A DNA stretch of 64,000 nucleotides from a virus (taxonomy: Duplodnaviria > Heunggongvirae > Uroviricota > Caudoviricetes): IMG/VR virus record IMGVR_UViG_2875713109_000001; one strand, written 5' to 3'. Position numbers and translations under genes: made by a program. The notes beneath the pieces are model-generated. The model searched no databases and was not told the origin of the DNA. It saw nothing but the letters and a program-made list of their open reading frames with translations. Below, piece after piece: positions 17,493 to 55,560 of the stretch (the first letter of the stretch is position 1; the number at the start of each line of letters is the position of its first letter).

Positions 17493-18353
17493 TTATTCGG
17501 GAAGTTTCAGCTTTGGATTGCGAGAATGGACGATTACAAAACTTTCCCGGCCTTTCTTCTCAATTGAACAGTCGAGATAGCCGATTGTTTTAAGCTGTTC
17601 TATCGCTTTCTTAATGATACGGTTTTGCTCGCCAACAGCTGACTGCAAAGCCAGGCGCTCACGGATTCGCGCGAACGATAGCGGCAACGGGTTCTGCGGA
17701 AGGCTTTCGATGAAAGTGTAAATGGCTTGTGCAGCTTCTTTCTTCGGAAGGGCACGCAAGGCGTGGTGTTGCAACAGAACGCGATAATCAAGCTGGAACA
17801 GCTCCCAGAGCTTCGAATCGGCCTCCAGCTCTATCAGATCAAGGTCAGCATCAAAACGCCCGACCTTCAGCAGACCAGTCTGATAGCCGCCTTTAGCATC
17901 TTTTCCGCGCTTAAAAGCGATACCCTTGTTACGCAAGCGTCCAAGTGATTCATGAATGGTTAAACGCAGTTTCGCATCCAGACGTTTTGAGGGGAAACCA
18001 CAGGCTTTAGCGAACTCCTGAAACGATAACTGGATGGTGTTTGAAGACAAGCCGTATTTGCTGAACGCGTAGATGACACCGATCCACGTTTTGAAATCAG
18101 TATCCATATCGAGTCGAGGACCGGTGATTTTAATATCATCGTAACCCTCGGCTTTAGCTATCTCCAGCTGGGAAAACGCTTTGGTGGCATCAATCTCTTT
18201 ACTTTCTCCTTTGCTCTTTGATGGCTTCGGCACGAATACCCCCAAGCGCATCAACGCTACAGGCTGCACAGTGTTGTTTGAATTAACTGTTAGTTCTTTT
18301 GCCTTACTTTCAATGTCTGCGTAAAGAATATCGGAGATAAATGATTGATTCAT
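17493..18353 (-). CDS. repA: plasmid replication initiator RepA
   Basis: 286-aa ORF flanked by iteron arrays on both sides, as in the P1 R replicon. Confidence 0.85.
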   Translation of the reverse strand: MNQSFISDILYADIESKAKELTVNSNNTVQPVALMRLGVFVPKPSKSKGESKEIDATKAFSQLEIAKAEGYDDIKITGPRLDMDTDFKTWIGVIYAFSKYGLSSNTIQLSFQEFAKACGFPSKRLDAKLRLTIHESLGRLRNKGIAFKRGKDAKGGYQTGLLKVGRFDADLDLIELEADSKLWELFQLDYRVLLQHHALRALPKKEAAQAIYTFIESLPQNPLPLSFARIRERLALQSAVGEQNRIIKKAIEQLKTIGYLDCSIEKKGRESFVIVHSRNPKLKLPE

Positions 18354-18513: not shown

Positions 18514-18640
18514 GCGATACACTTCTAAGCCAGACGTGGCGCGGCCTGCAACGATCAGGGATCTATATGGATCTAATTGGGATCTGTATGGACCTAATTA
18601 TTGGATCTACCCAGTGGATAATGTGGATAAGTGAAAAACC
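18514..18640. other. oriR: oriR GATC cluster and DnaA boxes
   Basis: Five GATC within about 60 bp (18551-18610) and tgtggataa DnaA-box matches at 18613-18630. Confidence 0.6.
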
Positions 18641-48120: not shown

Positions 48121-49314
48121 GTGACCTGGGACGATCACAAGAAGAATTTTGCTCGCCTGGCGCGAGATGGTGGTTACACCATCGCACAGTATGCCGCCGA
48201 GTTTAATCTTAACCCTAATACCGCACGTCGTTATCTCCGTGCCTTCAAAGAAGACACCAGGACAGCGGACAGCCGCAAGCCAAATAAGCCAGTCAGGAAG
48301 CCACTAAAAAGCATGATCATTGATCACTCTAATGATCAACATTCCGGTGATCACATTGCGGCTGAAATAGCAGAAAAACAAAGGGTTAATGCCATTGTCA
48401 GTGTCGCAGTCGAGAATGCGAAGCGCCAAAATAAGCGCATAAATGATCGTTCAGATGATCATGACGTGATCACCCGCGCCCACCGGACCTTACGTGATCG
48501 CCTGGAACGCGACACCCTGGATGATGATGGTGAACGCTTTGAATTCGAAGCTGGCGATTACCTGATAGATAACGTTGAAGCGCGGAAGGCCGCGCGCGCT
48601 ATGTTGCGTCGGTCCGGGGCCGATGTTCTGGAAACCACTCTTCTTGAAAAGTCTCTTTCTCATCTCCTTATGCTGGAGAACGCCAGGGATACGTGTATTC
48701 GCCTGGTGCAGGAAATGCGCGATCAGCAAAAAGCCGATGATGAAGGTACTCCGCCTGAATACCGTATCGCGAGCATGCTAAACAGCTGTTCCGCGCAGAT
48801 AAGCAGTCTGATCAACACCATTTACAGCATCCGGAATAACTATCGAAAAGAAAGCCGGGAGGCGGAAAAGCACGCTTTGTCTATGGGGCAAGCTGGCATT
48901 GTTAAGCTGGCATACGAACGAAAGCGTGAAAATAACTGGTCAGTGCTGGAAGCAGCTGAATTTATCGAGGCGCATGGCGGGAAAGTGCCGCCCCTGATGC
49001 TGGAGCAAATCAAAGCCGATCTGCGTGCTCCTAAGACCAATACCGATGATGAGGAAAGGCAAACTGCCGTCGGTGGTCCTTCTCTTGAAGATCTGGACAA
49101 AGTTGCGCGAGAACGGGCCGCCAACCGCCGCGCCGATGCCGCATTGTGGATTGAGCAGCGTAGGGAAGAAATCGCCGATATCGTTGATACAGGCGGTTAT
49201 GGAGATGTTGATACTGAAGGTGTATCAAACGACCCATGGCTGGAACAAGACCTGGACGAAGACGAGGAGGAAGACGAAGAAGTTACCCGCAAGCTATACG
49301 GGGATGATGATTAA
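48121..49314 (+). CDS. pacA: terminase small subunit PacA
   Basis: 397-aa ORF containing the pac hexamer clusters; GTG start with SD aggaag; stop overlaps pacB start. Confidence 0.8.
48310..48475. other. pac: pac packaging site (4 + 3 GATC-containing hexamers)
   Basis: TGATCA/TGATCG hexamers at 48314, 48321, 48333, 48348 and 48444, 48456, 48468, matching the P1 pac layout. Confidence 0.7.
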
Positions 49315-53695: not shown

Positions 53696-53933
53696 AATTA
53701 TGCCTCACTGTATTGACAACACAGAGCCTGAAGCTCTGACCTACTGTTTCACCCATGATCCATGCTGGGGTAATCTAACAACATTGCGCTGTGTGTAAGA
53801 TGAGCAATGCATAGCTGTAATGCCGTTGTATAAGGTTTCCCTGTTTGCTCATTTCCTTCTGAGCCGCTCTACAACGCTGAAGACACATTAAATAGTGAAT
53901 CCAAAGTCGTATTACGTAACGGCGGCAAAACTA

Positions 53934-53950
53934 TAATTTATTAGAGCAAT
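53934..53950 (-). promoter_or_regulatory. C1 operator-like site
   Basis: taatttattagagcaat, 16/17 reverse orientation. Confidence 0.55.
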
Positions 53951-54016
53951 TGTCAAACAACTATGAAAAACAATCCAGTTTTTAGCTGGTGGAGTGGGAT
54001 TTTTCTCTCTAAATTT

Positions 54017-54033
54017 ATTGCTCTAATAATTAT
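54017..54033 (+). promoter_or_regulatory. C1 operator-like site
   Basis: attgctctaataattat, 15/17. Confidence 0.55.
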
Positions 54034-54076
54034 TGATTTTTGTGCACAGCTGGACGTAAACTCCTCTTCGGACCTG

Positions 54077-54110
54077 ATAACTTCGTATAGCATACATTAT
54101 ACGAAGTTAT
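54077..54110. other. loxP: loxP site-specific recombination site
   Basis: Exact ATAACTTCGTATA-GCATACAT-TATACGAAGTTAT, 34 bp. Confidence 0.95.
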
Positions 54111-54129
54111 CTTAAGGGTTATTGAACAT

Positions 54130-54202
54130 GATCAATTTACCTGTAAATCCATACAGTTCAATACCTTATCAGGTCAAATAGTGATCACTTGATCATTTGA
54201 TC
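54130..54202 (+). promoter_or_regulatory. GATC cluster in cre upstream region (Dam-sensitive promoter candidate)
   Basis: GATC at 54130, 54183, 54191, 54199 read directly. Confidence 0.4.
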
Positions 54203-54299
54203 AAGGTTGCGCTACGTAAAATCTGCGAAATGTTGGCAGTGTTAGTGCTCCAGATTTCGCGTAGCGCACTTAGCACCACCAATCAATCAGAGGTGAAAA

Positions 54300-54521
54300 A
54301 TGGGATATTCAGCTGCTAAAGTGTCCACTCATCTTGAGCTTGAGAAAAACCGTGGTTACTGGCGGGCAAAAGGGTTTGATCGTGATAGTTGTCAACTGTC
54401 ATTATCGCGCGGTGAAGAGAAAATAGAACGCACGCGCGGTCGCTGGCGTTTCTATGACGAGAACCATAAACAGGTAAAGGCAGAGCCGATCCTGTACACT
54501 TTACTTAAAACCATTATCTGA
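54300..54521 (+). CDS. hypothetical small protein between loxP and cre
   Basis: 73-aa ORF with ATG and strong SD agaggtgaaaa; may be spurious. Confidence 0.3.
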   Translation: MGYSAAKVSTHLELEKNRGYWRAKGFDRDSCQLSLSRGEEKIERTRGRWRFYDENHKQVKAEPILYTLLKTII

Positions 54522-54528
54522 GTGTTAA

Positions 54529-55560
54529 ATGTCCAATTTACTGACCGTACACCAAAATTTGCCTGCATTACCGGTCGATGCAAGGAGTGATGAGGTTCGC
54601 AAGAACCTGATGGACATGTTCAGGGATCGCCAGGCGTTTTCTGAGCATACCTGGAAAATGCTTCTGTCCGTTTGCCGGTCGTGGGCGGCATGGTGCAAGT
54701 TGAATAACCGGAAATGGTTTCCCGCAGAACCTGAAGATGTTCGCGATTATCTTCTATATCTTCAGGCGCGCGGTCTGGCAGTAAAAACTATCCAGCAACA
54801 TTTGGGCCAGCTAAACATGCTTCATCGTCGGTCCGGGCTGCCACGACCAAGTGACAGCAATGCTGTTTCACTGGTTATGCGGCGGATTCGAAAAGAAAAC
54901 GTTGATGCCGGTGAACGTGCAAAACAGGCATTGGCGTTCGAACGCACTGATTTCGACCAGGTTCGTTCACTCATGGAAAATAGCGATCGCTGCCAGGATA
55001 TACGGAATCTGGCATTTCTGGGGATTGCTTATAACACCCTGTTACGTATAGCCGAAATTGCCAGGATCAGGGTTAAAGATATCTCACGTACTGACGGTGG
55101 GAGAATGTTAATCCATATTGGCAGAACGAAAACGCTGGTTAGCACCGCAGGTGTAGAGAAGGCACTTAGCCTGGGGGTAACTAAACTGGTCGAGCGATGG
55201 ATTTCTGTCTCTGGTGTGGCTGATGATCCGAATAACTACCTGTTTTGCCGTGTCAGAAAAAATGGTGTTGCCGCGCCATCTGCCACCAGCCAGCTATCAA
55301 CTCGCGCTCTGGAAGGGATTTTTGAAGCAACTCATCGATTGATTTACGGCGCTAAGGATGACTCTGGGCAGAGATACCTGGCCTGGTCTGGACACAGTGC
55401 CCGTGTCGGAGCCGCGCGAGATATGGCCCGCGCCGGAGTTTCAATACCGGAGATCATGCAAGCTGGTGGCTGGACCAACGTAAATATTGTCATGAACTAT
55501 ATCCGTAACCTGGATAGTGAAACAGGGGCAATGGTGCGCCTGCTGGAAGATGGCGATTAG
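54529..55560 (+). CDS. cre: Cre tyrosine recombinase
   Basis: 343 aa, matches Cre (MSNLLTVHQNLPALPVD...LEDGD) with one apparent difference from my recalled reference (DARSDE versus DATSDE). Confidence 0.97.
   Translation: MSNLLTVHQNLPALPVDARSDEVRKNLMDMFRDRQAFSEHTWKMLLSVCRSWAAWCKLNNRKWFPAEPEDVRDYLLYLQARGLAVKTIQQHLGQLNMLHRRSGLPRPSDSNAVSLVMRRIRKENVDAGERAKQALAFERTDFDQVRSLMENSDRCQDIRNLAFLGIAYNTLLRIAEIARIRVKDISRTDGGRMLIHIGRTKTLVSTAGVEKALSLGVTKLVERWISVSGVADDPNNYLFCRVRKNGVAAPSATSQLSTRALEGIFEATHRLIYGAKDDSGQRYLAWSGHSARVGAARDMARAGVSIPEIMQAGGWTNVNIVMNYIRNLDSETGAMVRLLEDGD

Follow-up and report, generated by a model that had tools for sequence, protein, structure and literature searches.

The closest described counterparts of the DNA analysed here, a stretch of 64,000 nucleotides referred to below as the window, are the cre control regions of P1 and P7; a Dam-sensitive promoter with a GATC in its -35 hexamer is also known from IS10, where it is the transposase promoter pIN. 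As references for P1, we used the records X03453 (Sternberg, Sauer, Hoess, Abremski 1986) and AF234172 (Lobocka et al. 2004), and for P7 the record AF503408. The study of Sternberg et al. 1986, the paper behind the promoter annotations of P1, is cited in PMC10695390, and a response of the P1 promoter pR1 to Dam methylation is reported to come from that study. The small ORF upstream of cre carries the label 'pot. ORF1 (aa 1-73)' in X03453, and cra is annotated in P1, P7, phiW39, SJ46, and RCS47. The P7 record contains no annotated promoters, and lists 'Dam recognition sites 1-4 within the regulatory region of cre' at coordinates 37, 90, 98, and 106.

The region analysed here was found to be 97-99% identical to P1, P7, phiW39, SJ46, and RCS47, and 100% identical to the E. 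coli plasmid NZ_MK256965.1; moreover, it was found in 712 PLSDB plasmids. The central A of loxP, at position 54094 of the window, is coordinate 1 of the P1 genome, and with the resulting offset of 54093 the feature tables of P1 and P7 (AF234172 and AF503408) could be mapped one-to-one onto the window, including the Dam sites, the LexA box, P2coi, P3cre, P2cre, P1cre, cra, and cre (Table 1). After this correction, the layout and coordinates of P1 were the same as those of the window, and the three promoter hexamer pairs, the Shine-Dalgarno sequence of cra, the 7-nt spacer between cra and cre, the LexA box, and P2coi were identical in both. The four Dam sites of P7 coincided exactly with those of the window. 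These comparisons indicate that the interval is, very probably, the known cre regulatory region of a P1-type phage-plasmid, with the order loxP, shared control region, cra, and cre, and this identity is firm because the sequence is near-identical to annotated records. The GATC cluster and the small ORF before cre, to which a previous sequence-only reading had drawn attention, are already described and belong to an ordinary P1 cre control region.

The differences from the reference records were few. P1 has GACC at window position 54183, where the window has a fourth GATC, and a few substitutions separate both sequences between the pR1 -10 and the Shine-Dalgarno sequence of cra. The window Cra is one amino acid apart from that of P1 (A5T in P1) and differs from that of P7 at two residues, and the window Cre shows a single substitution (T19R) when compared with P1 Cre. 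Collectively, the alignments indicate that the window departs from the P1 type sequence only in an additional GATC, which P7 also has, and in a small number of substitutions. A Cre/loxP module was recognised from the 34-bp loxP together with a Cre tyrosine recombinase, and the Cre homologues of related loci matched Pfam PF00589. At the sequence level, the defining features of the Cra family, the Cre/loxP module, and the pR1 promoter were all found in the window.

Table 1. Features of the cre control region, in window coordinates.
Feature	Position	Strand	Details
loxP	54077..54110	+	34 bp, ATAACTTCGTATA-GCATACAT-TATACGAAGTTAT; exact pattern match; annotated lox in P1, P7, and X03453
GATC, 'Dam site 1 in the regulatory region of cre'	54130..54133		P1/P7 coordinates 37-40
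P2coi, leftward sigma-70 promoter	54134..54161	-	-35 TTGAAC, -10 TAAATT (minus strand); P1 41-68; window identical
LexA box	54139..54158		core CTGT-N8-ACAG 54141-54156; annotated P1/P7 46-65
GATC, P7 'Dam recognition site 2'	54183..54186		P7 coordinates 90-93; GACC in P1; present in most IMG/VR relatives
GATC, P1 Dam site 2 / P7 site 3	54191..54194		within TTGATC 54189-54194, first alternative pR1 -35
pR1 = P3cre, promoter	54197..54222	+	-35 TTGATC 54197-54202, -10 TAAAAT 54217-54222; P1 104-129
17-bp inverted repeat	54209..54267	+	arms 54209-54225 and 54251-54267; overlaps pR1 -10; unannotated in P1 records
cra Shine-Dalgarno	54290..54295	+	GAGGTG, 4 nt before ATG; annotated ribosome-binding site in X03453
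cra (ORF1 of Sternberg 1986; upf0.2 in P7)	54300..54521	+	73 aa, ATG start, TGA ends 54521
pR2 = P2cre, promoter	54376..54405	+	inside cra; -35 TTGATC (with GATC 54378), -10 CATTAT; P1 283-312
pR3 = P1cre, promoter	54493..54517	+	3' end of cra; -35 TGTACA, -10 (C)ATTAT; P1 400-424
cra-cre spacer	54522..54528	+	GTGTTAA, 7 nt
cre	54529..55560	+	tyrosine recombinase, 343 aa

The comparison was extended to diverged loci (L004-L010), which belong to P1-like phage-plasmids of Salmonella, Klebsiella, Cronobacter, and other Enterobacteriaceae. These have in common with the window a lox site, a GATC beside the LexA box, a GATC in a -35-like TGATCA, and the inverted repeat, and they encode a 71-aa Cra (59-68% identity), followed by a 7-nt gap and a 342-aa Cre. 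They differ in having two extra genes between the control region and cra, of 68 aa (phrog_19934) and 356 aa (phrog_7674), and the 356-codon ORF (orf356) shares an ATGA overlap with cra. No Shine-Dalgarno sequence at all precedes cre in the Klebsiella and Cronobacter members.

Dam sites and the pR1 promoter

The sequence-only reading had counted four GATC sites, three of them within 20 bp, and both statements proved accurate: the sites start at positions 54130, 54183, 54191, and 54199, and the last three occupy exactly 20 bp (54183-54202), as three TGATCA hexamers with an 8-bp period. These three lie on the -35 of pR1 and immediately upstream of it. The isolated site at 54130 directly adjoins the -10 of P2coi, the leftward promoter, beside the LexA box. 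Two more GATCs, absent from that reading, were observed within cra, at 54378 and 54488, and the first of them is part of the -35 annotated for pR2.

The window as a whole was not enriched in GATC (258 observed versus 245 ± 15 expected). No second place in it has three sites within 20 bp, and under random placement one or more clusters of this kind are expected in 64 kb with P = 0.37; by count alone, the GATC cluster is not significant. This probability is what could be expected if the cluster were the chance by-product of a short tandem repeat containing TGATCA, with no role for methylation, and the variable number of sites, with GACC in P1 at the first clustered position and two or three sites retained in relatives, points in the same direction. 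However, in an alignment of seven sequences, in which four lineages are saturated at synonymous sites relative to the window, both the GATC within the pR1 -35 (54199) and that adjacent to P2coi (54130) were invariant in 7/7 sequences, including the four diverged lineages, even though the neighbouring bases had diverged. In all lineages, at least two GATCs were retained in the 25 bp upstream of the pR1 -10 or of the conserved GCTACGTAAAAT block, and all four sites were present in 58 of the 70 IMG/VR relatives that have lox in the retrieved stretch. Moreover, the remaining dense GATC clusters in the window, located in oriR/incC (18553-18607) and pac (48315-48499), are both known Dam-sensing elements of P1, and published work on P1, in the form in which it is cited, reports regulation by DNA methylation. 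A chance origin was rejected on the basis of the cross-lineage conservation, and we consider it extremely improbable. The cluster is non-random because it is conserved across lineages, and not because of the number of sites.

The -35 hexamer of pR1, TTGATC, holds the GATC at 54199-54202. In the P1 record, P3cre is stated to be identical to pR1 of X03453, and the window sequence is identical to both; X03453 lists the two TTGATC hexamers (54189-54194 and 54197-54202) as alternatives for the -35 of pR1. Across lineages, the TGATCA and GCTACG blocks of this region were invariant. The spacer of pR1 measures 14 nt, and 22 nt if the alternative -35 is used; both lengths depart from the canonical sigma-70 geometry of 16-18 nt. 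A scan of positions 53900-54700 with promoter and terminator consensus patterns gave zero matches and is uninformative for mapped promoters of non-canonical geometry; pR1 was missed by this generic scan because of its 14-nt spacer. The assignment of pR1 rests on the published in vitro mapping, and not on the consensus.

Dam-sensitive promoter control, which had been suggested from the cluster, is borne out by the P1 record, where the GATCs are marked as 'Dam methylation site within the regulatory region of cre' and the -35 of P3cre lies on the GATC at 54199. With a GATC in the -35 region and a sequence identical to the mapped P1 promoter, Dam-sensitive control of pR1 is supported for the window as well. 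The P1 promoter is reportedly methylation-sensitive and derepressed a few-fold in dam- cells. By its identity to the mapped P1 promoter, pR1 transcribes cra and cre rightward, and we propose that full methylation of the -35 GATCs would damp it. In freshly replicated, hemimethylated DNA, or in unmethylated DNA, a transient rise in the transcription of cra and cre would be expected, and such a burst would be timed with the resolution of plasmid dimers or the cyclisation of an infecting genome.

The leftward promoter P2coi is not part of cre expression and shares the cre regulatory region. The LexA box sits between the P2coi hexamers, and its core was kept in 6/7 aligned sequences, the first half-site being CTGG in L006.

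The 17-bp inverted repeat downstream of the Dam sites was also analysed in the relatives. Across 15 distinct sequences, 91% of the cells were paired, with two compensated pairs, and U-G pairs were found solely on the + strand. This wobble pattern is more in keeping with an RNA hairpin than with a symmetric operator. An Rfam scan of the region gave no relevant match, and none for the inverted repeat.

The cra gene and its homologues

A strong Shine-Dalgarno sequence had been claimed for the 73-aa ORF, and we found for it a duplex energy of -7.1 kcal/mol with the 3' end of the 16S rRNA. Of the 58 long ORFs in the window, about 83% have a weaker signal, and among random positions only 2% attain this value. 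In all relatives, this signal was of equal or greater strength (-7 to -12 kcal/mol). The protein matched phrog_804 (PHROG 804) with E = 7.2e-35, residues 3-73 aligning to profile positions 1-72, and it was 97-99% identical to the annotated Cra of P1, P7, and RCS47. Its position is that of the Cra family, i.e., between loxP and cre, on the cre strand, and in the same order as in P1 and P7.

The sequence-only reading had proposed conservation of the ORF in P1-like genomes as a check. When loci were picked on the basis of Cre only, a choice unbiased for cra, 69 of the 82 had an intact ORF that ended 7 nt before cre; among the remainder, cra was intact further upstream in nine and disrupted in four, by two frameshifts and by an ATG to CTG change in two independent contigs. 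When loci were selected by Cra, the gene was intact in 79/79. A search of species-representative genomes for Cre relatives yielded two loci only and added no diversity. For the Cra of the diverged P1-like lineages, with amino acid identities of 59-68%, dN was 0.25-0.34 and dS was saturated, and within the diverged lineage dN/dS ranged from 0.07 to 0.34, indicating purifying selection. Taken together, the comparative data indicate that cra is a genuine protein-coding gene.

An exhaustive profile search for Cra retrieved 16 representative clusters only, composed of small uncharacterised proteins and fragments. The relatives of 65-79 aa share the motif E-L-E-K-x-x-G-Y-W-R-A-K-G-F and a C-terminal LLKxII. 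A 'putative Cre-associated protein' of SSU5-type elements (SSU5_068; CYRAN_62 in Cyrano) was also placed in the Cra family, with about 35-37% identity to the family member P0048, and has in common with the family the WRAKGF motif and the LLKxII C-terminus. In SSU5 and Cyrano, the homologue is the last gene of an operon, convergent with repA, with no recombinase nearby. Because these SSU5-type homologues adjoin no recombinase, the name 'Cre-associated' is purely positional and is valid within P1-like elements only; and because homologues occur without any recombinase, Cra has a role of its own.

The protein has a predicted mass of 8.7 kDa. An AlphaFold2 model of moderate confidence (pLDDT 71) contained two helices at the N-terminus, a small beta-sheet of four strands, and a helix at the C-terminus; this model gave no match in the PDB at E <= 0.001, and matched only uncharacterised phage proteins in BFVD. 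The sequence gave only a sub-threshold CENP-H match in Pfam, and no match in NCBIfam and PADLOC. When cra of P1 was knocked down by CRISPRi, the efficiency of plating was 0.66, and the gene was scored as non-essential for the formation of plaques (PMC10695390). One proposal for its role is that of a small DNA- or RNA-binding regulator of lox-cre, acting, for example, on the inverted repeat, with autoregulation of cra and cre as the outcome. The protein is basic (pI 9.6, with a range of 9.4-9.8 for Cra), it stays next to cre in all P1-like lineages, the conserved inverted repeat overlaps the pR1 -10, and some depositors have used the label 'putative Cre-associated regulatory protein', all of which would agree with this proposal. 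Nevertheless, this database label is unsupported, no recognisable DNA-binding domain was detected with Pfam or NCBIfam, the model showed no structural match to a known regulator, and the SSU5-like homologues are found in an unrelated context. In addition, the wobble pattern of the repeat would be less suited to a symmetric operator than to an RNA hairpin. We consider it very unlikely that Cra is such a regulator.

Expression of cre downstream of cra

Two of the promoters annotated in P1, pR2 and pR3, lie within cra. The pR2 hexamers were not conserved in the diverged lineage, and this promoter is specific to the P1 lineage. For pR3, the synonymous sites of CTGTACACT (CTG-TAC-ACT), the stretch of cra that holds the -35 TGTACA, were invariant in five lineages, and in the last 17 codons of cra 5/13 qualifying codons were invariant, against a maximum of 4/13 in any window of cre. 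In the -10 of pR3, A2 and T6 were kept in all lineages. The alignments indicate that pR3, unlike pR2, is conserved across lineages. Transcripts started at pR2 or pR3 cannot translate full-length cra, and that of pR3 would have only a few nt before the cre ATG, i.e., a very short leader.

The distance of 7 bp from the end of the 73-aa ORF to cre, and the weakness of the cre Shine-Dalgarno sequence, had both been pointed out before and were both found here. The TGA of cra ends at 54521 and the ATG of cre starts at 54529, and the duplex energy upstream of cre was -2.5 kcal/mol, indistinguishable from that of random positions (median -1.7). The sole Shine-Dalgarno-like element for cre, GAGTG at 54520-54524, shares bases with the stop codon of cra. 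The 7-nt gap was observed in the window, in all 79 close relatives, and in four diverged lineages, with the spacer sequence diverging (GTGTTAA, GCAGACA, CTAACTT, and TTAAGCT) at this constant length, and the Shine-Dalgarno sequence of cre was weak or absent in all lineages (-2.5 to +1.8 kcal/mol), with -2.3 to +1.8 kcal/mol among the relatives. In 9/82 Cre-selected loci, a 131-codon ORF (orf131, phrog_20152) was inserted between cra and cre, and its stop overlapped the cre start as ATGA. The ATGA overlap of orf356 with cra in the diverged lineage is a further case of such an arrangement. The junctions upstream of cre have the sequence marks of a coupled pair, with stop and start within a few nt or overlapping, and with a downstream cre without an effective Shine-Dalgarno sequence. 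Judged from these comparisons, the cre start adjoins an upstream stop (<=7 nt or overlap) in three gene arrangements, and never with a good Shine-Dalgarno sequence. Translational coupling from cra to cre, as the sequence-only reading had suggested, is unproven and has moderate comparative support. No discussion of it was found in the literature searched.

RNA structure was also considered. Masking of the cre start by structure was not significant in the window (z = -0.34), and the alignment around the start gave a weak consensus structure only, with no useful covariation. Coupling mediated by structure was rejected, since no conserved RNA structure links the translation of cra to the cre start.

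A stricter form of coupling would make the translation of cre obligatorily dependent on that of cra, which would then be chiefly an ORF for the delivery of ribosomes. It would account for a cre without a usable Shine-Dalgarno sequence in every lineage, for the fixed 7-nt distance or ATGA overlap in the three arrangements, and for a cra that is always provided with a strong one. However, pR2 and pR3 have been mapped inside cra and the pR3 -35 is conserved at the nucleotide level, so that transcripts unable to translate cra evidently contribute to the expression of cre as well. Moreover, cra is disrupted in the four natural loci mentioned above, in two of them, independent contigs, by the change of its ATG to CTG. 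Purifying selection on the amino acid sequence of Cra and the occurrence of the family in SSU5-like elements without a downstream recombinase are both unexpected for a mere leader ORF. We regard obligatory dependence as unlikely.

The reading that we prefer has more than one route to cre. On the pR1 transcript, ribosomes that end at the cra stop would reinitiate at the cre ATG, 7 nt further on, and on the pR3 transcript cre would be read from the very short leader; both routes would keep the level of Cre low. From this we infer that cre may be deliberately poorly translated, receiving ribosomes via reinitiation (pR1) and via short-leader initiation (pR3). In its general form, which we put forward tentatively and with less than even confidence, the level of Cre in all P1-type elements would be set mainly by termination-reinitiation from the adjacent upstream ORF (cra or orf131), with the nearly leaderless pR3 transcript as a second input, and with the inverted repeat at 54209-54267 as perhaps an extra regulatory element of cra and cre. 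Neither the setting of the Cre level by reinitiation, nor the pR3 input, nor a role for the inverted repeat was described in the records or literature searched.

Relation to known systems

The region is a classic case of Dam control over the expression of phage genes, and beyond its correct annotation its significance is small. The additions made here are small as well: cra is a real and conserved gene, with relatives outside Cre-carrying elements, and to this are added the conservation of pR3, the start of cre at an upstream stop without a Shine-Dalgarno sequence, and the unannotated inverted repeat. They open no major question, and could guide the study of natural Cre levels in P1-like phage-plasmids, a group that often carries resistance genes.

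When compared with pIN of IS10, pR1 is alike in having a GATC in the -35, and in both cases the methylation state would alter the strength of the promoter and tie expression to the passage of the replication fork. The two differ in that pR1 has two or three phased TGATCA repeats, and not a single GATC, and in that pR1 drives a recombinase, involved in dimer resolution and cyclisation, and not a transposase.

An inverted repeat over pR1 and the promoters inside cra

We found an inverted repeat with 17-bp arms overlapping the -10 of pR1 (the P3cre promoter), and this was kept in the diverged P1-like lineages, with 91% paired cells. Compensatory changes were observed at two of its pairs in these lineages, and the wobble pairs were all U-G on the + strand. 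The P1, P7 and X03453 (original P1 cre-region) records carry no annotation of this repeat, and no Rfam match was obtained for the 54209-54267 segment. Since transcripts from pR1 are expected to begin downstream of the left arm, several roles are to be considered, and the repeat may be an RNA hairpin made from another start, a DNA element or an operator.

Within cra, three successive synonymous sites at codons 65-67 were invariant in five lineages among which dS was otherwise saturated, and they coincided with the position at which the pR3 -35 is annotated. Unlike this -35, the hexamers of pR2 were not kept outside the P1 lineage. The coordinates of these and the other features are listed in the table.

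Coordinates of the features analyzed
Feature	Record	Coordinates	Sequence or position
Inverted repeat, left arm	window	54209-54225	GCGCTACGTAAAATCTG
Inverted repeat, right arm	window	54251-54267	CAGATTTCGCGTAGCGC
cra, 73 aa	window	54300-54521	
pR2 hexamers	window	54376-54405	inside cra
cra codons 65-67	window	54493-54501	CTGTACACT
Cre codon 19	window	54583-54585	
phrog_19934, 68 aa	L004-L010	1188-1394	between control region and cra
phrog_7674, 356 aa	L004-L010	1434-2504	between control region and cra
phrog_20152, 131 codons	L097	2109-2504	between cra and cre
loxP, exact 34 bp	H23/H24	17548-17581	portal gene, phage Q33
loxP, 32-bp exact match	H97	82667-82698	extreme end of plasmid record
GATC cluster	window	18553-18607	oriR/incC region, plasmid origin
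GATC cluster	window	48315-48499	pac packaging site inside pacA
P2coi	window	54134-54161	

Variation in and around cra

Disrupted cra was detected in four natural P1-like IMG/VR contigs (L111, L169, L126 and L129), and cre was intact in all of them. Two carried a single-base frameshift, one of which fell within an A-run and may be a sequencing error, and a change of the start codon from ATG to CTG was common to two independent contigs of this set. In the window itself, Cre codon 19 encodes Arg vs Thr in P1 and P7, and this was the sole difference from P1 Cre.

In the lineage from Salmonella, Klebsiella and Cronobacter (L004-L010), two additional genes separate the conserved lox/GATC/inverted-repeat control region from cra; neither product had a Pfam, NCBIfam or PADLOC match, and the longer ORF overlaps cra as ATGA. 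Another extra ORF, phrog_20152, with no Pfam match, was found between cra and cre in 9 of the 82 loci selected by Cre alone (L097, L101-L104, L107, L113, L114 and L151), and its stop overlaps the cre start, again as ATGA. In L097, the locus of the nine that was examined, the Cre N-terminus (MTNSL...) is of the type typical of the diverged lineage, and this sequence feature suggests a mosaic.

In many records from E. coli, Salmonella, Klebsiella and Cronobacter, the NCBI annotation labels the cra product 'creatininase', for example the proteins P0002, P0005 and P0006 and the plasmid matches H59 and H62, among others. However, 73 aa is far below the size of that enzyme, and no Pfam or NCBIfam match was obtained; the label seems to have arisen by a wrong expansion of the gene symbol cra that was then passed on between records.

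loxP matches elsewhere and GATC sites

Matches to loxP were also present in the records of Lactococcus phage Q33, a plasmid of the rumen bacterium Pseudobutyrivibrio xylanivorans (H97) and a few further unrelated plasmids. These matches probably stem from loxP-based linkers or vectors used for libraries and left behind in the assembled sequences, and not from a biological occurrence of the site.

Apart from the cluster upstream of cra, GATC is densely grouped in the window at oriR/incC, where both Dam sites and DnaA boxes are annotated, and at pac; therefore, every group of four or more GATC within 75 bp in the window is a known P1 Dam-sensing element. The isolated GATC at 54130 directly adjoins the -10 of P2coi, a leftward promoter under LexA control, and because of this position it may be relevant to coi expression rather than to cre, whereas the P1 and P7 records list its counterpart among the cre regulatory Dam sites.
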